From UHGV virus genome UHGV-0086135: a DNA stretch of 64,000 nt; one strand, 5' to 3'. The DNA is from a virus. The position numbers were made by a program, and so were the translations under genes. Below the pieces are notes generated by a model. The model was not told where the DNA came from. It ran no database searches and saw only the letters and a program-made list of their open reading frames with translations. Below, piece by piece: positions 3,265 through 16,751 of this stretch (within the stretch, counting starts at the first letter, position 1; each line of letters begins with the position of its first letter).

Positions 3265-3446
3265 GTCTGAGTAAAGAACAAAAAGATAAATTGTTTGAGC
3301 TTATCCATGAACTTCTAGATGAGCATACAGAAGCAAACACCTTTTATGATGAATACGGCCCGCTATCTCCCGATCAGCAAGAAGAATTTGCTGATCGGTT
3401 TGATAAGAAAGAAAACGAATTAATAGCTTATGTGAATACGCTTTAA
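3261..3446 (+). CDS. hypothetical protein, 61 aa
   Basis: ATGA-coupled ORF immediately upstream of tk. Confidence 0.4.
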   Translation: MSLSKEQKDKLFELIHELLDEHTEANTFYDEYGPLSPDQQEEFADRFDKKENELIAYVNTL

Positions 3447-3455
3447 GAAGGTGAT

Positions 3456-4037
3456 ATGGCGAGTTTAATTTTTACTTACGCAGCAATGAATGCTGGAAAA
3501 TCTGCTTCTCTTTTGACTGCTGCACATAATTATAAAGAACGCGGAATGGGTGTATTAGTTCTTAAGCCTGCTATTGATACTCGTGATTCTGTCTGTGAAG
3601 TCGTTTCTCGCATTGGAATTAAGCAGGAAGCGAATATTATTACGGATGATATGGATATTTTTGAGTTCTATAAATGGGCTGAAGCACAAAAAGATATTCA
3701 TTGTGTATTTGTAGATGAAGCTCAGTTTTTAAAAACTGAACAGGTGCATCAATTAAGCCGAATTGTTGATACATATAATGTTCCTGTTATGGCTTATGGT
3801 CTAAGGACTGATTTCGCTGGAAAATTATTTGAAGGTTCTAAAGAACTTTTGGCGATCGCAGATAAACTTATTGAACTAAAAGCAGTTTGTCATTGTGGTA
3901 AAAAAGCGATTATGACAGCTCGATTAATGGAAGATGGAACACCAGTTAAAGAAGGTAATCAAATCTGTATTGGTGATGAAATTTATGTTTCTTTGTGTAG
4001 AAAACATTGGAATGAATTAACTAAAAAGCTCGGTTAG
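3456..4037 (+). CDS. tk: thymidine kinase
   Basis: 193 aa; P-loop NAGKSASLL and C-terminal Zn-finger Cys pattern of TK. Confidence 0.95.
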   Translation: MASLIFTYAAMNAGKSASLLTAAHNYKERGMGVLVLKPAIDTRDSVCEVVSRIGIKQEANIITDDMDIFEFYKWAEAQKDIHCVFVDEAQFLKTEQVHQLSRIVDTYNVPVMAYGLRTDFAGKLFEGSKELLAIADKLIELKAVCHCGKKAIMTARLMEDGTPVKEGNQICIGDEIYVSLCRKHWNELTKKLG

Positions 4038-7081: not shown

Positions 7082-7563
7082 TTATAATTATGATTATTAA
7101 TGAAAACTCTTGGCACTTTAAAATTTACTCGGCATTTAACAGCACATGGAATCGTCCAAAAACGTTATGTGCTTATTTTTGGAAAACGTTTCTCCCGGTA
7201 TTAGCGGTTTCAATTGTTGGATTTGCAACTTTAACAGGTGCTGCAATAATTGGCCAAGAAATTTTAATTAAATTCTTTGTCTTTAGTAGTCTATGGACAT
7301 TAATTCCAGCTTCAATTGGTATAGGCATTTTAGCATTATCGGTCATGGTTCTTATTGCTGTCGGGGCGGTAATTGGTCCTTCCTGGTTGTTAGACAAATA
7401 TAACGACCGAAAGCTCAATAAAGAAATTGAGCTCATTGTACAAAACGAAGAACGAATCAAAAATGGACTTGAGCCTATTCAACCCAAGAAATCTATTATC
7501 GTCGAATTTTTAAAAGCGCGTAAAGCTAAAGTATGTCCTGTTATTGAATATAAGGCTGAATGA
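7078..7563 (+). CDS. predicted membrane protein, 161 aa
   Basis: Two to three hydrophobic helices. Confidence 0.5.
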   Translation: MIIIMIINENSWHFKIYSAFNSTWNRPKTLCAYFWKTFLPVLAVSIVGFATLTGAAIIGQEILIKFFVFSSLWTLIPASIGIGILALSVMVLIAVGAVIGPSWLLDKYNDRKLNKEIELIVQNEERIKNGLEPIQPKKSIIVEFLKARKAKVCPVIEYKAE

Positions 7564-8573
7564 TGAAAACAGTAATGAAAAGCTATTTTGGTAGTCATCT
7601 TTATGGAACTTCTACTCCAGAATCTGATGTAGATTTTAAAGAAATCTTTGTTCCTCCTGCTCGTGATATTCTTATCGGAAATGTTAAAGAGCATATGAGT
7701 AAAAACACTAACAGCACATCATCTAAAAACACTAAAGATGATATTGACCATGAACTATACAGTCTTAAGTATTTCTTTAAATTAGCAGCAGATGGTGAAA
7801 CTGTAGCATTGGATATGCTCCACACTCCACCTGAACTGGTAGTTAAATCTGATTTGCCTGATGTATGGAAGTTTATTCAAGACAACCGTTCTCGTTTTTA
7901 TACGACTAACATGAAATCCTATTTAGGATATGTTCGCAAGCAAGCTTCTAAATACGGTGTTAAGGGTTCCCGTTTGGCCGCATTACGTGATGTATTGAAA
8001 GTAGTTAATCAAATCCCTGAGCAATGGGTTGATTACCAAGAAGACGGTTCCATTAAGCAGCGTCGAACTAAAGTTGAAGATATTAAGCATCGTCTTCCAG
8101 AGAACGAGTTCTGTGAATGGGTATTCCATAATCATGAGAAAACAGGTCCACAAACGTTCTACACTGTGTTGGGTCGTAAATATCAGACAACGCTTTCTCT
8201 TATCGAGCTTAAGCAATCTTTGAATAAACTTGATGCTGAATACGGCGAACGCGCTCGTAAGGCCGAAGCTAATGAGGGCATTGACTGGAAAGCTCTGAGT
8301 CATGCTTGCCGTGGTGGACTCCAACTATTGGAAATTTACAAAACTGGTGACTTAGTCTATCCACTTCAAGATGCTCCATTTATTCTCGACGTGAAGTTGG
8401 GTAAACATCCATTTAAAACTGTTCAAGAGTTTTTGGAAGATGTGGTCGATCAAGTAGAAGCAGCATCCATTGAAGCTTCTAAGAACGGTATGCAGCAAAA
8501 AGTAGACATGGGTTTCTGGGATGACTTCCTTGAGAGGGTTTATCTTGAAAACCACCGAAGTTATTATAAATGA
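7560..8573 (+). CDS. predicted pol-beta-superfamily nucleotidyltransferase-fold protein, 337 aa
   Basis: N-terminal GSHLYGTSTPESDVDF fits GS-x9-DxD signature. Confidence 0.5.
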   Translation: MMKTVMKSYFGSHLYGTSTPESDVDFKEIFVPPARDILIGNVKEHMSKNTNSTSSKNTKDDIDHELYSLKYFFKLAADGETVALDMLHTPPELVVKSDLPDVWKFIQDNRSRFYTTNMKSYLGYVRKQASKYGVKGSRLAALRDVLKVVNQIPEQWVDYQEDGSIKQRRTKVEDIKHRLPENEFCEWVFHNHEKTGPQTFYTVLGRKYQTTLSLIELKQSLNKLDAEYGERARKAEANEGIDWKALSHACRGGLQLLEIYKTGDLVYPLQDAPFILDVKLGKHPFKTVQEFLEDVVDQVEAASIEASKNGMQQKVDMGFWDDFLERVYLENHRSYYK

Positions 8574-8623: not shown

Positions 8624-8653
8624 GTTTACAAGCATAAAGCTTTATGGTACTAT
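8624..8653 (+). promoter_or_regulatory. T4-type early promoter with conserved leader cassette
   Basis: GTTTAC 8624-8629, TACTAT 8648-8653; downstream leader repeated at 36.3 kb and 63.6 kb. Confidence 0.6.
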
Positions 8654-8687: not shown

Positions 8688-8837
8688 ATGAAAACTACGT
8701 TAATTGAAGTAAAAAAGTTGATTGACACAGAAGAAATTTCAGCTTATTTTGAAAATTTCTTAGAAGATGCAACTGAAGATAACGCAGTTTATCTCGCTCA
8801 GAAAATTATAGAAACATATTTGGAGCAGAATCAATGA
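8688..8837 (+). CDS. hypothetical acidic small protein, 49 aa
   Basis: ATG after repeated leader; not in ORF track. Confidence 0.4.
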   Translation: MKTTLIEVKKLIDTEEISAYFENFLEDATEDNAVYLAQKIIETYLEQNQ

Positions 8838-9097
8838 CAGTTTACGTAGATGTTTTAATGAATCATGGATGGAAACTTCGCGGTCATCCAACTAAAAATT
8901 GTCATATGTTCATTGATGGAGATATTGAAGAGCTTCATAAAATGGCAGAAGCAATAGGAATGAAACGTTCTTGGTTTCAAGATAAACGCATTAAACATTA
9001 TGACTTACATGCTCGCCGACGCCAAAAAGCCGTAGAACTTGGAGCTGTAGAAGTATCTCGTCGCGAAGCAGTAAAAATTTGGCAAACATTAAAATAA
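8834..9097 (+). CDS. small conserved protein, 87 aa (resembles DUF4031 family from memory)
   Basis: MTVYVDVLMNHGWKL...HYDLH pattern; ATGA-coupled. Confidence 0.45.
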   Translation: MTVYVDVLMNHGWKLRGHPTKNCHMFIDGDIEELHKMAEAIGMKRSWFQDKRIKHYDLHARRRQKAVELGAVEVSRREAVKIWQTLK

Positions 9098-9100
9098 ATT

Positions 9101-9130
9101 GTTTACAGTAGGGTAGTAGTGTGATACTAT
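9101..9130 (+). promoter_or_regulatory. T4-type early promoter
   Basis: GTTTAC 9101-9106, TACTAT 9125-9130. Confidence 0.55.
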
Positions 9131-9166: not shown

Positions 9167-10135
9167 ATGAAAACTGTAACTATCAATAAGGGTATCTACT
9201 TCGGTAAAGAAATCTCTGGAACTTTTGAGCTCTTAGGCGAATGGTTCCCAGATAATGCTCCGGTAGATGCACAAGGAGATGGTAAAGTTTTTGTTGAAAT
9301 TGACGGTAAACGTCGCGGTGTTTGGGTTTACAAATCAGATATTTCATATGATGGTGTAAAAGTTGAAGAAGTTAAAGAATCGTATGAAGATATGAAAACC
9401 CGCATTAATAAAAGATTTAATGTTATGGGAATGATGACGAATGGTATTATTAATGGAAATATTCGTTCATTGATTATCTCTGGTGCAGCAGGTATTGGTA
9501 AAACGTATTCTTTAGATAAAGCTTTGAATAAAGCAAATGATATTGGATACATTGAATATAAAAGCATTAATGGTAAAATCTCTGGTATTGGTCTTTATGA
9601 GCAGCTTTGGAATAATCGTGAAGAGAATTCTGTCCTTTTGATTGATGATGTGGATGTTTTCTCTGATATGGATATTCTTAATCTTCTAAAAGCCGCTCTG
9701 GACACTGGAGAGACCCGTAAAGTCTGCTGGAGCACTGCGTCTTCTTACTTAGAAGAAAAAGGCATTGAGCGTGAGTTTGAATTTAAAGGAACGATTGTTT
9801 TTATCACAAACGTTGACATTGACCGCGAATTAGACCGTGGTACTAAACTTGCTCCACATTTACAAGCATTAGTGTCCCGCTCGGTTTATTTGGATTTGGG
9901 TGTTCACACTAATGAAGAAATTATGGTCAGGGTTGAAGATGTTATTCTTTCAACTGACATGATGCAAAAGCGCGGTCTTTCTGATGAAGAAACTTATAAA
10001 GCATTATCATGGATGAAAGTTAATGTTAATCGTTTACGCAATGTTTCACTGCGTACTGCTCTTTATCTTGCTGACTTTATTATGACCGACAAAAACGGTT
10101 GGGAAGAAATCGCTGAGGTTACTCTTCTGAAATAA
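9167..10135 (+). CDS. P-loop (AAA-like) ATPase, 322 aa
   Basis: Walker A GAAGIGKT, Walker B LLIDDVD; ATG with GGAG SD. Confidence 0.55.
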   Translation: MKTVTINKGIYFGKEISGTFELLGEWFPDNAPVDAQGDGKVFVEIDGKRRGVWVYKSDISYDGVKVEEVKESYEDMKTRINKRFNVMGMMTNGIINGNIRSLIISGAAGIGKTYSLDKALNKANDIGYIEYKSINGKISGIGLYEQLWNNREENSVLLIDDVDVFSDMDILNLLKAALDTGETRKVCWSTASSYLEEKGIEREFEFKGTIVFITNVDIDRELDRGTKLAPHLQALVSRSVYLDLGVHTNEEIMVRVEDVILSTDMMQKRGLSDEETYKALSWMKVNVNRLRNVSLRTALYLADFIMTDKNGWEEIAEVTLLK

Positions 10136-10541: not shown

Positions 10542-10571
10542 GTTTACAAGACTGTTCCTCTGTGGTACTAT
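10542..10571 (+). promoter_or_regulatory. T4-type early promoter (partial copy of leader cassette)
   Basis: GTTTAC 10542-10547, TACTAT 10566-10571. Confidence 0.55.
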
Positions 10572-10599: not shown

Positions 10600-11127
10600 A
10601 TGAACGCTAAAGATATTTTCAACTTGGTAAATTACAACGATGGTAAATTTAAATCTGAGGCACAAAGCAAGTTCTTTAATGACATCTCAATCGGAGGTGA
10701 AATCACTGTTGATGGAGGACAAATTTACAAATCCCGTTGGAATTGGATCGTTATTATTGATGAGATCGGTATTGTAGAAATTTACAAAAATACGAATAAA
10801 AATCGTACATTACACTGGTCTCGTGATACTAACGAACAGTACAAAAAGGATAAAGCATCTAAATTATCTCGTGTAACTCAAGAAGATATTGAGTTCATCA
10901 AGAAAGATATTTTAATGTATGATAACTTAATTGCTGAAGAGCAAGCTGTTATTGATAAATTTGACGAGATTAAAGCTTCTCGTGAAATTCCTGATTTTAT
11001 GAAAGAATCAGTAAATGAACGATACACTCTCATTTCAGAGCGTATTGAAACTTACAAAAAGCAAAGAGCTGAACGCCAAAATACTCTTCGGAAGTTTGAA
11101 GAACGGTTAAAGACGGTACTCGCATAA
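10600..11127 (+). CDS. hypothetical protein, 175 aa
   Basis: GGAGG SD; helical charged C-terminus. Confidence 0.5.
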   Translation: MNAKDIFNLVNYNDGKFKSEAQSKFFNDISIGGEITVDGGQIYKSRWNWIVIIDEIGIVEIYKNTNKNRTLHWSRDTNEQYKKDKASKLSRVTQEDIEFIKKDILMYDNLIAEEQAVIDKFDEIKASREIPDFMKESVNERYTLISERIETYKKQRAERQNTLRKFEERLKTVLA

Positions 11128-11182
11128 CCGCTTTATACCAAGGATGGTATAATGGTTCTAAGCCCTTTTAATTGAGATTATT

Positions 11183-11590
11183 ATGAAACAGTTGATAATT
11201 AAAAGATTGAATTTATTGATATGTTGTTTATGTGTAGTAGTTGCATATGGTTATTACGCAATTAATGATTATATGCATTATAAAGATTATGATGTTACTG
11301 TAGTTAATACCATTACAGGAACACAAGGAAAAGGGTCTAGTTTATCGTTTATTGCCGTATATGAACTCAAAGATGGTTATAGATTTAGTGAATATATTTC
11401 CCCAGAGATGTATTCTTCAATAGAAAAAGGTGATAATATTACTGTAAGTTTACGTCCTTTCGACGTAAAACAGACATTGTTTGATAATATTGTTTGGTTC
11501 TTTGGAATGGTATTAGTTCAATCTGTGTGTGGTGCTTATATAGTCTGTTCCATCTTATTCTGTATATTTAGTAAAATTGAAATTGAGTGA
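11183..11590 (+). CDS. predicted membrane protein, 135 aa
   Basis: N- and C-terminal hydrophobic helices. Confidence 0.45.
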   Translation: MKQLIIKRLNLLICCLCVVVAYGYYAINDYMHYKDYDVTVVNTITGTQGKGSSLSFIAVYELKDGYRFSEYISPEMYSSIEKGDNITVSLRPFDVKQTLFDNIVWFFGMVLVQSVCGAYIVCSILFCIFSKIEIE

Positions 11591-11597
11591 GGAAAAT

Positions 11598-12488
11598 ATG
11601 TCAGTAGTAATTAATAATGTCAATGCAGTAATTAAATCTTTAGTTAATAAAAAAATGATGAATGAATGGACTGTATTTCGCAGTGCAGAGCCAGATAAAT
11701 TTTTTCATAGATTTAACCCAACTTTGGATTTGAATGTTATTGACAGAGATGTTCATGCAGAAATTTTAGATAAGTTTAAAGTTGATATTGGATTTGGATT
11801 AGAAAAACATTTGCAGCGAACAAACGGATCTGGAATGAGTTTATCTAATCGCATTATGAAAGCCCTTAATAAAATTGGAGCATTGTCTCGTATTAACGCG
11901 AGTGAAATCCTTCGTAATTATAATAAAGGATATGACCTTTATGGTCGACTAATGCCAAAATTATCATTCGATCAAATGATTGCGGATTTGTGGGAAAATC
12001 AAAGACGATTATTAGCATTAGGCGCTCGATTAGCTAAAGGTCTAGATAAACAAATGATTTTTAAGACCAATAATACAGAAGACCTTAAATGCTTTAAATT
12101 TAGTATTCGTGGCGATGATTATTATATCAGAGCTCGCTCTACAGATTATGTCAATATGGGGCATCATCTCTGTTTAGCTTTTGAAGTTTTAAAAGAAGCT
12201 GGAACATTAGAATATTCATCTGGTGCAAAATGCCCTATTGGTTCAAGTTGTATTTTAATTTATCGCCCGGATGAATCCAGTTCAACTACATTGCCTACGA
12301 AACCTGTATCAGTTCGTAGTAACGAAAAACATTCTGAACAAATTGATTATTTTAATAAACAGATTGAAGAGCTGAATATTTCTATTCAACAATATGATGA
12401 TGAAATTTTCAGACTATCTGGACTGAGTAGTAAAGCTAAATCTGAGCGTGAAAAGTTAATTAAAATTGTCGATTTACTTAAATCTTAA
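11598..12488 (+). CDS. coiled-coil paralogue family member A, 296 aa
   Basis: ATG with GAGGAAA SD; C-terminal heptad-rich tail. Confidence 0.55.
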   Translation: MSVVINNVNAVIKSLVNKKMMNEWTVFRSAEPDKFFHRFNPTLDLNVIDRDVHAEILDKFKVDIGFGLEKHLQRTNGSGMSLSNRIMKALNKIGALSRINASEILRNYNKGYDLYGRLMPKLSFDQMIADLWENQRRLLALGARLAKGLDKQMIFKTNNTEDLKCFKFSIRGDDYYIRARSTDYVNMGHHLCLAFEVLKEAGTLEYSSGAKCPIGSSCILIYRPDESSSTTLPTKPVSVRSNEKHSEQIDYFNKQIEELNISIQQYDDEIFRLSGLSSKAKSEREKLIKIVDLLKS

Positions 12489-12496
12489 GGAATACC

Positions 12497-13519
12497 ATGA
12501 AAACTCGTTCTCAAATTGAAGATATGGTTCGTAATGCCAGCTATACTCGTGATGCTATGACGTTTTTGTGTGAAAATAATTTAGACCTTGGTAAAGTTAA
12601 TTGTTCCATTCATGCCTTTAAACATCTGAACAGCAGTGAATGGGTGCGCAATTTTAACCAAGCAGGATATATTACACAAATGACGGCTCGTGAGCAGCTC
12701 ACTGATTTCTGTAAAACTATTGATTATAAAAATCCTCTATTTGTTCAAGGTGTTGGCCAAAGTAAGGTCGATTTATCATCTGGATTTTTCAATCCAAATC
12801 ATTATCGTATTGAATGGAGATTTATTGCTCTATTCCGTAAACAATTAAAACAAATTTTATCAATTGCGAGTCGATTAAAAGGTTCTGATATTAACTTAAA
12901 GAATCTGAAATTTGATGGTTATACTCTTCAGATGGAAGTAAGACCATTAAAAGAAAATAACAGAACTGCGCGAATTAGCTTTAAACCTAATACAAAAAAT
13001 TCTCTTTCAATTTGCGAATGCCTTAAATCACAGTTGACAGAAGCATTTAAGTATATGGATGTTGTTGCCGCTGTTCAGTCTAAGATTTTACCTCATTTTG
13101 AGCGAAATTGGGAACATACAACAACGTATGAACTTGATATGATCGTTTCATTTAAATACGATTTTTTGAGAAAGGACGAAGTCCCACAAGAGAAAAAGCA
13201 GGAAGTGCAAGATAACTTAAATTTATCCAATTACTCATCAAACGATCCTAAATTTTGGATGTATAGTTCAAGTAATAAAGATGCATGGAAATTCAATAAA
13301 GTGAATTTTCTTCCTGTTGAAAATCCGAGTCTTAAACCTGTTGAAAAATGGCATGCGGATGCGATTGAGAAGTCTATCAAGGCAGTAGATGATGAACTCG
13401 TTAAAGCAACTAATGAAGTGTTAGAAGCTGAAAAGATGCTAGAAAAAGCTCAAGAAAAAGTCAAAAATCTTACGAAGCAACGTTCTAAACTGAACAATGC
13501 ACTAAATGCACTAAACTAG
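12497..13519 (+). CDS. coiled-coil paralogue family member B, 340 aa
   Basis: N-terminal MKTR...; central motif shared with member C; coiled-coil tail. Confidence 0.55.
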   Translation: MKTRSQIEDMVRNASYTRDAMTFLCENNLDLGKVNCSIHAFKHLNSSEWVRNFNQAGYITQMTAREQLTDFCKTIDYKNPLFVQGVGQSKVDLSSGFFNPNHYRIEWRFIALFRKQLKQILSIASRLKGSDINLKNLKFDGYTLQMEVRPLKENNRTARISFKPNTKNSLSICECLKSQLTEAFKYMDVVAAVQSKILPHFERNWEHTTTYELDMIVSFKYDFLRKDEVPQEKKQEVQDNLNLSNYSSNDPKFWMYSSSNKDAWKFNKVNFLPVENPSLKPVEKWHADAIEKSIKAVDDELVKATNEVLEAEKMLEKAQEKVKNLTKQRSKLNNALNALN

Positions 13520-13548
13520 TTTACTTTGCCACAAGGATGTGGTATAAT
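13519..13548 (+). promoter_or_regulatory. T4-type early promoter
   Basis: GTTTAC 13519-13524, TATAAT 13543-13548. Confidence 0.55.
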
Positions 13549-13576
13549 GTTCTTACTTTCTACTGAGGAGATTAAT

Positions 13577-14578
13577 ATGACTCGTAACGAATATATCAAA
13601 TCATTCAATAGCGTTATTGATGATAAAGTTAAGACTGTGTCTAGTCAGAATAGTGTTATTTCCATTATCAATCAATGGCTCAATAATACTGATGCAAGTA
13701 TTGTTTCTTCAAGCAAATTTATTCATGAAGTTCATAAAATTTCTAGTCGCGAATATAAAGATGATATTAAGGAAACTTTTAAAGGTTCTCGTCTTCTTTC
13801 ATATTTAGTTAATCAAGATATTCTTGGTAAATTTGGGAAAGAAATTAAACGAACTAAAGATGTAGTAGGATACAGTTGGTTCGGTGATGTTAATTCTTAT
13901 CATCTTAATAATAAAGAAGACCCTGAGAATATTTTTACTCGTCGTTGGATTAGTAATTTTAGACTTTTCAAGAAGCAAATTCTAAAATCAGCTTCTAAAT
14001 TATGCTATGGTGATTATCGTCAAATCCATCCTTGGGCTTCTGATATGATTATCATAAAAGAATATGAGCTTGATAAAAATAAAGCAGCTATTTTTGTGAA
14101 TTATGAATTTTTTACACCAGAAGCTAATCAAAAGAACATTAATAAATTTTTCTCAATTGCTAGCGATATAACTCGTCAGTTAGAGACCGCATTACTTTGT
14201 ATGGAAACAGTAGAAAATATTCATACTTATCCTTTTAAGAATATATGCGGTTGGGAAGGATATAAAATTGTAGTTAGTCTCCGTGAAGTAAAGTGTGCGT
14301 ACTCACCGACTGATAAAGAAATTTACCAACAAAAATGTGATGAAATTGTGAATACTCCTAAAGAAGAAACTACCCTTGAGGAACTAATGGAATGTCTTGA
14401 CGATTCACCTGAACCGGTAGAAATTCGTCCAGAAGTTATTGCACTAGAAAAAGCTTATAAAGAAGTTCTAGAAATTTCTAATAAAGCGCAGAAAGATTAT
14501 GAGCAGGCTAAAAGGATTTGGGAAGAATCTGTTAATCGCCTGGATCGTCTTGAACAAGCTTTACAGTTAATTAAGTAA
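13577..14578 (+). CDS. coiled-coil paralogue family member C, 333 aa
   Basis: ATG 13577 with GAGGAG SD; KKQILKSASKLCYGD motif. Confidence 0.55.
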   Translation: MTRNEYIKSFNSVIDDKVKTVSSQNSVISIINQWLNNTDASIVSSSKFIHEVHKISSREYKDDIKETFKGSRLLSYLVNQDILGKFGKEIKRTKDVVGYSWFGDVNSYHLNNKEDPENIFTRRWISNFRLFKKQILKSASKLCYGDYRQIHPWASDMIIIKEYELDKNKAAIFVNYEFFTPEANQKNINKFFSIASDITRQLETALLCMETVENIHTYPFKNICGWEGYKIVVSLREVKCAYSPTDKEIYQQKCDEIVNTPKEETTLEELMECLDDSPEPVEIRPEVIALEKAYKEVLEISNKAQKDYEQAKRIWEESVNRLDRLEQALQLIK

Positions 14579-14630
14579 TTTAAAGCCAAGGATGGCTCGG
14601 AGTATAAATCATTAACCAAGTGAGAAGAAC

Positions 14631-15557
14631 ATGAAAACTCGTAAACATTATATTGATTATTTTGACAGCCTTATTACTAAACACCGTAATTATCAGATCG
14701 GACACAGAGCAGTAATCAATAATATTCTTCGTGATTTTTTAGACTATATTGGATGGGAAAACCATATTTGTAAAGATACACAAAATGCATATTCACATTC
14801 TCTTGGTTCTTTGCTAGAGTGGTTCAAACGTTCCCGATTACTATCTTCTGTAATAGCTGTTAATAATGTTAAAAAATTTATGTATCCAAGCTACATTGAG
14901 ACTAATGTATCAAATGCTAATGTTGTTACATTTAATATTATTAATGACGTGAAAAGAACTTATTTAGAAGAATGGTTTTCTAAAAATAGTAAAGAAAAAT
15001 TCGCTAGTGAGTTTTCAGGTGAATTTAATGAGAACGTTAATATGCTTTTTAAGCATTCTCGTAGACTGTTTTGTCATGGTGATAATCGTACTATTAATGT
15101 GAATGTAAAAGACTGGGTTACTGCTAAATTCACTCCATCATCCCAGAATGGACAATTTGAATTATCAATTATCATTTGTGCTCCGCACGAGATATATAAA
15201 AATCTTCCGTATATGAAACCGCACGAAGCTAATAAACACAATGAAACTATTAGTTCTTTGGCTTATAATTTGCGTGAGTTATTATCTAATATGGATGTAG
15301 TTAAATCCTTTGATGATAATACGAATTATGGTCTTTCACTGTTTGAAACTAAATTTGTTATTAAGTTAAAGGACCCCAGCGAATTTAAACCTACACCAAA
15401 GCACAATCATGGGAATGATACTATGAAAGAAGAACGTGAATATCTCAGTGCTCGTTTGATTGAAGTTGAAAAACAGATTGAAGAGCATACTAAAGTTCTT
15501 AAGGCTTTAACCGCCAAAGCAGATGGTTTACGTGATGCTATTGAGGTGCTGAAATGA
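14631..15557 (+). CDS. coiled-coil paralogue family member D, 308 aa
   Basis: N-terminal MKTRKHYIDYF; coiled-coil tail. Confidence 0.55.
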   Translation: MKTRKHYIDYFDSLITKHRNYQIGHRAVINNILRDFLDYIGWENHICKDTQNAYSHSLGSLLEWFKRSRLLSSVIAVNNVKKFMYPSYIETNVSNANVVTFNIINDVKRTYLEEWFSKNSKEKFASEFSGEFNENVNMLFKHSRRLFCHGDNRTINVNVKDWVTAKFTPSSQNGQFELSIIICAPHEIYKNLPYMKPHEANKHNETISSLAYNLRELLSNMDVVKSFDDNTNYGLSLFETKFVIKLKDPSEFKPTPKHNHGNDTMKEEREYLSARLIEVEKQIEEHTKVLKALTAKADGLRDAIEVLK

Positions 15558-15871
15558 AAAAGCGTCTATTAGAAGATATTGCAGCTTCAAGTAATTCCAG
15601 TCTAATTAAAATTATTATGGCTGGTGAAGAAGACGATCTGGAAATGCGTGGAAAGATTCATGGTTGTGACGATTTAGATTTTAAACCTCCAGCATGGGAT
15701 GCCATTATGGCTATGGTTGAACGCCGCGAAAGGGCTTCTAAAAACGTTCCTAATTGTCCTGAATGCGGTACTGAACAGGTACAATTAGTTCATTGGCAGA
15801 CTAGTAATCTTCGTTATAAATGTCGTCATTGTAAACACCGATTTGACCGAGAAGAAAATGACAAAGCGTAA
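15554..15871 (+). CDS. zinc-ribbon protein, 105 aa
   Basis: CPECG...CRHCKH four-Cys ribbon; ATGA-coupled. Confidence 0.45.
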
Positions 15872-16100
15872 AGAATATATGGAGACTGCTGAAAAGGCAG
15901 TCCGTGAATTAGCAATAGCGTATTATAATGAACACGGTAAATTTCCTGATAGATACAGCGTGCTTAAATCTGCTTTAACCCGTTCATATAAAAATATGCT
16001 ATCAGAAGTAAGTGATATTATATACAAACATAAAGAACAAACTGGCCAAAGTCTTGATTACGACGAGACTTTTAAACAAGTACTAGGAATTAAGGAATAA
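15858..16100 (+). CDS. hypothetical protein, 80 aa
   Basis: ATG 15858 (track starts at TTG 15843). Confidence 0.4.
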
Positions 16101-16101
16101 T

Positions 16102-16365
16102 ATGTTTAAAGTATATGGTTATGATAGCAGTATCCATAAATGCGTGTATTGTGATAATGCAAAACGTCTTTTGACTGTGAAGAAACAGCCGTTTGAATTT
16201 ATCAACATTATGCCGGAAAAAGGTGTTTTTGATGATGAGAAAATCGCTGAACTTCTGACGAAACTAGGTCGTGATACTCAAATTGGTTTGACGATGCCAC
16301 AAGTATTTGCTCCTGATGGAAGTCATATTGGCGGATTTGACCAATTGCGGGAATACTTTAAATGA
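16102..16365 (+). CDS. nrdC: phage thioredoxin/glutaredoxin
   Basis: 87 aa; CVYC active site; matches T4 NrdC as I recall. Confidence 0.9.
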   Translation: MFKVYGYDSSIHKCVYCDNAKRLLTVKKQPFEFINIMPEKGVFDDEKIAELLTKLGRDTQIGLTMPQVFAPDGSHIGGFDQLREYFK

Positions 16366-16751
16366 TGCTCGAAGGAACTGATTATATCCATGACTACCGC
16401 GGAAGCGCGGTATATGTAGGTGATGAAGTTGCAGTTTACTATGGGTATGGAACTTTGATGACAGCCAAGGTTATTCAAATTAAAAATAACCGTGCTAAAC
16501 TTGAAGTTTATTATTCTAATGGTGAAAAGTCTATTTCTAAATGGAAATATGGGCGATTGTATGGTCAAACTGGGGTAAATATGATTTACGATATTAGCGT
16601 ATCAAGAACTCCGTCAATGGTTACTATTCCTGCTGAAGAATTAGATCGTCTTCAGAAAATTGAAGAACTTCTTTGGGAAATTGAATCTGATTTGCCATCA
16701 GGACTAGAATCCTGGATTGATTATGAAGAACTTAATAAATTGCGAAATTAA
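16362..16751 (+). CDS. hypothetical protein, 129 aa
   Basis: ATGATG-coupled to nrdC. Confidence 0.5.
   Translation: MMLEGTDYIHDYRGSAVYVGDEVAVYYGYGTLMTAKVIQIKNNRAKLEVYYSNGEKSISKWKYGRLYGQTGVNMIYDISVSRTPSMVTIPAEELDRLQKIEELLWEIESDLPSGLESWIDYEELNKLRN

Follow-up and report, generated by a model that had tools for sequence, protein, structure and literature searches.

A 64,000-nucleotide stretch of the virus genome UHGV-0086135 (hereafter the window) carries at positions 11598-15557 four consecutive open reading frames (ORFs) that are, by sequence comparison, the orthologues of the T4 early accessory genes nrdC.6, nrdC.5, nrdC.4 and nrdC.3. We refer to these genes and their products as A, B, C and D, respectively. 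Our analysis supports the view that A, B, C and D are real but ancient tandem paralogues, with A the member whose link to the others is the weakest. We propose, with a probability of about 60%, that they represent an expanded family of early, non-enzymatic and probably oligomeric binders that would hold host immune proteins inactive, the target of nrdC.5 being Dsr1.

The window belongs to the genus Tequatrovirus. Its positions 11000-16400 are 99.6% identical at the DNA level to Shigella phage vB_SsoM_113 and match 660 phage records, and the names nrdC.6, nrdC.5, nrdC.4 and nrdC.3 are those given to the four ORFs in the GenBank annotation of vB_SsoM_113. All four genes lie on the + strand: A at 11598-12488 (296 amino acids), B at 12497-13519 (340 amino acids), C at 13577-14578 (333 amino acids) and D at 14631-15557 (308 amino acids). 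They were identified from the ORF list together with the GenBank name and PHROG family (PHROG 2257 for A, PHROG 1435 for C and D) or, for B, with the Pfam family DUF7235 (PF23882) and its position. The coordinates and lengths in the original prediction, which had been made from the letters of the window, were reproduced exactly, and its placement of the array in a tk-nrdC island was correct, as tk (3299-3880) and nrdC (16102-16365) bracket the four genes. Identity to the proteins of T4 strain GT7 is 97% for A, 91% for B, 90% for C and 91% for D.

The match of B to DUF7235, the T4 NrdC.5/Y05A family, scored 422.3 bits (cut-off 30) and covered residues 1-340, and B sits in the orthologous position, the nrdC.6/nrdC.4 interval of the Tequatrovirus genome. 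B is therefore like T4 NrdC.5 (UniProt P39256) in identity, interval and full-length Pfam match, whereas A, C and D share its architecture as remote paralogues but have no DUF7235 match, leaving B the sole member of that family among the four. A matches PHROG 2257 over its full length; C and D fall together in PHROG 1435, and A and B each have a PHROG of their own. We assigned C and D to PF26897 and A to PF26899 via the labels on their homologues. PF26897 (Phage_T4_Y04OP; NrdC.3/NrdC.4 family) is the precomputed label on 63 of 63 homologues of C, and it is also carried by P0056, an nrdC.3-type fusion protein described below. PF26899 (Phage_T4_Y05B; NrdC.6 family) is found on the Mosigvirus homologues P0120-P0123, which are ∼31% identical to A, and likewise on the nrdC.6 orthologue in the metagenomic T4-like genome L030.

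Are the four genes descended from one? We used one profile per family, with orthologues taken from GenBank phages and IMG/VR contigs. Raw pairwise BLASTP gave a single link, between C and D, and this was weak (E 0.004). Whole-length profile alignment with hhalign linked C to D with a probability of 98% (E 2e-14), B to C with a probability of 83.5% (E 8e-6) and B to D with E 5e-4, followed by A-B (E 0.02) and A-C (E 0.16); A and D gave no match in this comparison. Because a common coiled coil can mimic similarity, the last 55-62 residues were removed and the profiles were scored against column-shuffled nulls. Without the tails, C-D (z=32), B-C (z=9.0) and A-B (z=4.9) stood above the nulls, and A-C, A-D and B-D were not significant. 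The similarity above shuffled controls by which common ancestry was to be judged was thus present in the first three pairs and not significant in the last three. The similarity is collinear across >200 columns.

Further links came from intermediate sequences, which were obtained by searching 1.84 billion representatives exhaustively with HMMER. P0136, P0137, P0142 and P0143 match both the A and the B profile (for P0137 the match to B includes a core-only match), and P0139, from Klebsiella Marfavirus phages, matches the core of C and the tail of B. Tail-less jackhmmer searches seeded from A, B, C or D all converged on one set, each finding 74-77 sequences and the union holding 78. Everything recruited was an array gene or a family protein, with 0 of the 89 unrelated ORFs in the database drawn in, and a rerun against a larger database of 275 sequences yielded 83 family matches. 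In BFVD, a Foldseek search with the AlphaFold model of C found an nrdC.3-type protein (E 1e-8) and the nrdC.6 protein of JS10 (E 3.8e-6), the latter over its full length with modest template modelling (TM) scores of 0.41-0.47. A search with a mixed alignment of all four families returned mainly nrdC.5 and Mosigvirus nrdC.6 types, and no divergent nrdC.5 or nrdC.3 sequences. Shared ancestry is strongly supported for C and D (hhalign E 1e-14) and well supported for B and C (E 1e-4, z=9), and A joins the family indirectly, through the intermediate sequences, the iterative profiles and the Foldseek match of the C model. The common ancestry proposed for the four members is therefore upheld by tail-less profiles, jackhmmer convergence, intermediates and a fold match together.

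We next turned to the predicted structures. The AlphaFold 2 model of C, with a predicted local distance difference test score (pLDDT) of 79.5 and a predicted TM score of 0.64, begins with some six helices packed as a bundle (residues 3-84), followed by a three-stranded sheet (88-110), two helices containing the central motif (119-142), a beta-beta-alpha-beta-beta unit (158-235), a partly helical linker of low confidence and finally an uninterrupted helix (285-332). In the model of B (pLDDT 65.5) the elements follow in the same order, with residues 75-102 and 224-276 disordered and the last helix at 284-339. Over aligned positions, the secondary structures of B and C agreed at 64% in register versus 31-54% when shifted. 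The four proteins share a common plan: the helical N-terminal domain is variable, the core that follows is a conserved alpha/beta sandwich, and a floppy, disordered linker connects it to a conserved helix of ∼45-55 residues. The core is, as modelled, a generic two-layer alpha/beta sandwich without an enzyme-like site.

The multiple alignment has four shared landmarks. The N-terminus carries TRxEYI in the B, C and D types (three of the proteins had been said to start with M(K)TR, and these are indeed B with MKTR, C with MTR and D with MKTR), and all families have G-x-LSR...L-x-NFGK, a central helix ending in G-D, and the tail. On the + strand, the central helix motif lies at 11997-12047 in A (NQRRLLALGARLAKGLD, residues 134-150, from the multiple alignment with positions counted by hand), at 12836-12889 in B (RKQLKQILSIASRLKGSD, residues 114-131, from the alignment and within model helices 105-128), at 13970-14014 in C (KKQILKSASKLCYGD, residues 132-146, from the alignment and model helix 132-142) and at 15033-15083 in D (NVNMLFKHSRRLFCHGD, residues 135-151, from the multiple alignment). 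The motif had been noticed in B and C with weaker echoes in A and D, and we found that it aligns across all four families.

We then considered the C-terminal segment, which lies on the + strand at 12324-12485 in A (residues ∼243-296, ending in KLIKIVDLLKS), 13346-13513 in B (residues 284-339), 14429-14572 in C (residues 285-332, ending in RLEQALQLIK) and 15417-15554 in D (residues ∼263-308). All four were delimited by the tail alignment, together with the AlphaFold 2 model for B and C and a heptad score for A, B and D. Charged residues make up 35-40% of the tails versus 27-30% of the whole proteins, and in each protein a crude heptad score of the tail exceeded 95-100% of shuffles. When 52 distinct tails were right-aligned, hydrophobic residues recurred at 4-3-4-3 spacing across 44 residues: positions -44, -40, -37, -33, -26, -23, -19, -16, -9, -5/-6 and -2 were hydrophobic in 75-100% of the tails, compared to 2-25% at most intervening positions, and positions -30 (60%) and -12 (37%) fit the spacing more weakly. 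The very end is near-invariant (K-L-x-x-A-[LIV]-x-[AL]-L-K). The a/d periodicity runs over at least four heptads in a helix free of proline and glycine, except that A has a glycine in mid-tail (RLSGLSS), and the PDB sequence matches of the tail, seen for B, were GCN4 and tropomyosin, both sub-threshold. Charge, shuffle score, the periodicity of the 52 tails and the single model helices of B and C thus all bear out the charged, heptad-rich segment claimed for the four proteins. The phrase 'ending in a coiled coil' describes them fairly, and oligomerisation is predicted.

No enzyme family was found for the four proteins in Pfam, NCBIfam or PADLOC, nor did they have the features of NAD+ reconstitution proteins of the NARP1/2 type, and sub-threshold coiled-coil noise was all that PDB sequences, NCBIfam and PADLOC yielded. 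The statement that there is no catalytic motif therefore stands, and a match to a well-characterised enzyme family, which would have argued against the array being what it was taken for, did not turn up. Enzymatic NAD+ rescue was rejected as a mode of action, as no enzyme domain was present in these three databases. Among 28 cluster representatives from the exhaustive HMMER search, all of them phage-sized, there was no fusion to other domains, and therefore no fusion clue to function.

What is known of function comes from T4. A T4 deletion mutant failed to plate on the E. coli strain ECOR17 as long as dsr1 was present, cloned dsr1 protects MG1655 against this mutant, and T4 nrdC.5 alone, supplied on a plasmid, restored plating of the mutant on MG1655 carrying ECOR17 dsr1 (Srikant, Guegler and Laub, eLife 2022, PMC9391042). 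The text and supplements of that paper do not specify which nrdC genes the evo 3 deletion removed. The sensor of Dsr1 is a TPR domain, common with Avs7, that is triggered by the phage major capsid protein (2026 preprint, PMC12803255). T4 omics data place nrdC.3, nrdC.4 and nrdC.6 in the early class for both RNA and protein, and nrdC.5 in the early class for RNA and the middle class for protein (PMC9697503 supplement). All four genes are non-essential in T4 (transposon mapping, HIDEN-SEQ supplement). In addition, nrdC.1 was recently reported to be a Septu inhibitor; its orthologue in the window lies at 15858-16100, two genes downstream of the array. Because nrdC.5 counters Dsr1 and nrdC.1 counters Septu, the block upstream of nrdC therefore holds at least two counter-defence functions.

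By orthology to the T4 protein, B would have anti-Dsr1 activity. The original prediction had left the function of the array unknown; this still applies to A, C and D but not to B, whose T4 orthologue (91% identity) re-enables infection of dsr1-bearing E. coli. Its guess of a host-interaction or anti-defence role agrees with the published work on T4 nrdC.5 against Dsr1 (PMC9391042) and on nrdC.1 against Septu, and nrdC.6, nrdC.4 and nrdC.3 become candidates for an anti-defence role as well. In the mechanism that we favour, each paralogue would be a soluble stoichiometric inhibitor produced early in infection, which would bind a host immune protein and keep it inactive before the late trigger proteins of the phage appear. 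For nrdC.5 the target would be Dsr1, a SIR2-TPR NADase with a sensor for the major capsid protein. The specificity for the target may be set by the variable N-terminal domain, perhaps together with the core, and the coiled coil would make the inhibitor oligomeric, which may add avidity for oligomeric defence proteins. We infer the direct binding, the role of each domain and the oligomeric state.

Several points weigh against this proposal. Functional data are available for one of the four members, and they come from T4 rather than from the present phage. Binding of NrdC.5 to Dsr1 is itself a proposal, and its effect may be indirect; the targets of A, C and D could be unrelated to immunity. The place of nrdC.6 in the family depends on intermediates and a Foldseek match of modest TM score, with direct profiles linking it to B alone (z=4.9). 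In most Tequatrovirus genomes nrdC.6 is 95-99% identical, which is unusual for a fast arms race. Finally, confidence in the B model is mediocre (pLDDT 65.5), and because the C family was in its alignment, neither the model nor its secondary-structure agreement with C tests the shared fold independently.

Could the four proteins instead be general host-takeover factors that act on transcription, translation or proteostasis? Rescue from Dsr1 by nrdC.5 would then be indirect, for example through a change in when the capsid trigger is made or how it folds, or in a host sensing factor. We consider this unlikely, as all four proteins are fully dispensable on laboratory E. coli, nrdC.5 is required only when dsr1 is present, copy number and alleles vary among close relatives as they do for host-range accessory genes, and the fold matches are generic. 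Another idea, which we hold to be rather doubtful, is that the proteins are plugs for pattern-recognition receptors: a structural-protein-like core, exapted from a neck protein of the tail-terminator type, on an oligomerising coiled-coil stalk would fill the TPR sensors of Dsr1/Avs type before capsid and tail proteins can do so, each paralogue or allele class having its own receptor. If this were true, the array would be the phage-side mirror of the host sensor repertoire.

It is somewhat harder to believe that the proteins are decoys of structural proteins, whose core copies the tail-terminator/tail-completion fold so that the early paralogues occupy TPR-type Avs/Dsr sensors. This idea, though attractive, is based on generic fold matches and does not fit the capsid trigger of Dsr1. 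Known tail terminators (lambda gpU, T5 p142, the Mu terminator and DUF3168) had no sequence match to the four proteins, and other generic alpha/beta folds scored equally. In contrast to the terminators, the nrdC proteins are early and not late and have extra N-terminal and coiled-coil parts, and we regard the likeness as a resemblance only. Membership of the tail terminators was rejected as a candidate identity on the grounds of early expression and dispensability.

A single hetero-oligomeric machine, in which the paralogues assemble through their C-terminal helices into a mixed coiled-coil complex, is improbable. Conservation between the families is highest in the tail, where near-invariant residues (L-9 94%, A-6 79%, L-2 92%, K-1 81%) go beyond what a heptad needs, and the genes are adjacent, co-oriented and early, as such a complex would lead one to expect. 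However, in the single-copy genera a homomer must function, natural genomes exist with lost or fused members, and plasmid-borne nrdC.5 alone gave rescue, although PMC9391042 is silent on whether the other three genes were intact. Least probable is that there is no family at all and that the likeness reflects coiled-coil composition and the AT-rich codon bias of unrelated neighbours: although BLASTP was non-significant in five of the six pairs and Pfam puts the four proteins in three separate families, the signal persisted without the last 55-62 residues and exceeded the shuffled nulls for C-D, B-C and A-B, every seed converged with zero false recruits, >200 columns were collinear and the fold search echoed the result, and similarity by composition only was accordingly rejected.

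The early-inhibitor proposal is set against a history of gene gain in which a single ancestral gene directly upstream of nrdC.2 would have been duplicated, among the coliphage genera, into a tandem array of three or four. Tequatrovirus genomes have the order A-B-C-D, Dhakavirus-type genomes A-B-C and one Mosigvirus A-B-D. A single member is present in Marfavirus, Kanagawavirus, Mosugukvirus and Moonvirus, always directly upstream of a homologue of nrdC.2. The family hidden Markov models found no match near nrdC in the more distant Jiaodavirus, Slopekvirus, Lazarusvirus and Krischvirus, no fifth copy occurs in the 64-kb window, and a ∼260-amino acid ORF ahead of the lone family gene in several genera had no detectable relationship to the family. 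The tandem diversification that had been suspected is thus seen as one copy in other Tevenvirinae genera against three or four in the coliphage genera, accompanied by allele replacement, fusion and a split gene. The ratio of non-synonymous to synonymous substitutions (dN/dS) is 0.06-0.28 across the four genes (0.09-0.16 for A), meaning purifying selection, and in A, B and C variability is greatest within the N-terminal 85 residues.

Foldseek with the C model also retrieved uncharacterised proteins of similar size from Acinetobacter, Serratia, Erwinia and Aeromonas phages. In the Acinetobacter phage Abraxas, orf120 (Abraxas_120; L021 7881-8912) encodes 343 amino acids directly upstream of nrdC and ends in a heptad-rich helix (...TLEETIKILSK), and its hhalign match to the superfamily profile was weak (z=3.5). 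Together, Abraxas_120 and the Foldseek matches hint that the family extends to the Twarogvirinae.

We also noted rearrangements among the relatives. nrdC.3 occurs in Tequatrovirus as two allele classes that are ∼60% identical (14631-15557 in the window versus L005 7057-7986, L007 1606-2535 and L011 7056-7985); their N-terminal 85 amino acids are 86% identical and their cores 44-46%. Identity to the Mosigvirus gene is ∼80% for the second class, and the alleles suggest mosaic replacement between genera. nrdC.4 is deleted in the metagenomic T4-like genomes L030 (4728-6900) and L031 (1092-3261), which encode the 299-amino acid fusion P0056. In this protein, found on four contigs, residues ∼146-274 of nrdC.5 are joined in frame to an nrdC.3-type protein from ∼137 to the end (junction KFNKVN|MLFKH). 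The two parts meet at non-equivalent positions, and the fusion therefore resembles the product of a microhomology deletion more than that of an unequal crossover. A 115-amino acid ORF at the nrdC.5 position precedes P0056 and is probably the N-terminal fragment of nrdC.5. In L011 (5971-7003; IMG/VR UViG 2974742932), two overlapping ORFs (193 and 158 amino acids) make up a split nrdC.4, which probably reflects either pseudogene formation by frameshift or an error in sequencing. P0125 (173 amino acids; L029 120-641, an 803-nt ENA contig) ends in the nrdC.5 coiled coil: its last ∼55 residues were reported as 100% identical to the tail of B, of which tblastn aligned 44 at 100%, and neither the window nor the phage collection had a match to its first 120 residues. 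A module swap is one possible origin of P0125, an assembly chimera another. Lastly, the linker motif TLE[ED]L[IM]D.L[ND] of the nrdC.4 family (∼14340-14400) recurs as ALKDLIDELN in a Mosigvirus nrdC.6-type protein (L003 6923-7918, of the same sequence class as P0120) and is absent from Tequatrovirus nrdC.6, and segments may have been exchanged between paralogues.

How does the array compare with known systems? It is not a new kind of system, because the genes have long been annotated in T4 and one of them has a published anti-defence function. A functional analogue is DSAD1 (DSR anti-defence 1), the DSR2 inhibitor of SPbeta-like Bacillus phages, which is described as a small non-enzymatic phage protein directed against a SIR2 NADase with a C-terminal sensor for a phage structural protein. 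TifA, Dmd and AdfA (of the anti-toxin-antitoxin island), the internal proteins IPI-IPIII and NrdC.1 are likewise dispensable, encoded in plastic regions, needed on defence-bearing hosts and variable among relatives, but they are unrelated in sequence and lack the plan of helical domain, sandwich, linker and coiled coil. Unlike these other T-even counter-defence genes, nrdC.3-nrdC.6 form an array of three to four paralogues that encode proteins of ∼300 amino acids. The publication on T4 NrdC.5 (PMC9391042) does not describe the architecture of the protein, its mechanism or its kinship to the three neighbours, and no paper in the literature searched treats the four as one family or offers a mechanism. 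New here are the superfamily link over three Pfam families, the common architecture and the history from one to four copies, none of which was found in that literature.

As a consequence, nrdC.6, nrdC.4 and nrdC.3 become specific candidates for panels of defence systems, and this in T4, the best-studied lytic phage. The architecture suggests targets for mutation, namely the variable N-terminal domain for specificity and the conserved coiled coil for assembly. The array is also an example of host-range genes that expand by tandem duplication, from one to four copies in coliphages, which bears on the prediction of phage host range for therapy.

Some features of the locus remain to be described. 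The spacers between the four + strand genes are short, and the stop codon of D overlaps the start of nrdC.2 (ATGA at 15554). Good Shine-Dalgarno sequences precede the ATG of A (GAGGA) and of C (GAGGAG); the nearest GenBank record begins C 30 nt further upstream, giving 343 amino acids. In the spacer between B and C, a promoter-like site on the + strand (13520-13548, TTTACT-17-TATAAT with an upstream TG) was identified by consensus match only, and a small hairpin at 13527-13544 overlaps it. Similar promoter-like sites, TTTAC(A/T)-17-TA(C/T)(T/A)AT with an upstream TG, occur at 8625-8653, 9102-9130 and 10543-10571; the likeness of these sites to T4 early promoters is likewise a consensus match only. 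Upstream of the array, nrdC.11 (7563-8573) is an RlaP-like nucleotidyltransferase and nrdC.10 (9167-10135) a P-loop ATPase with weak STAND-like matches, and between them lies an 87-amino acid DUF4031 ORF (8834-9097, Pfam E 6e-21).

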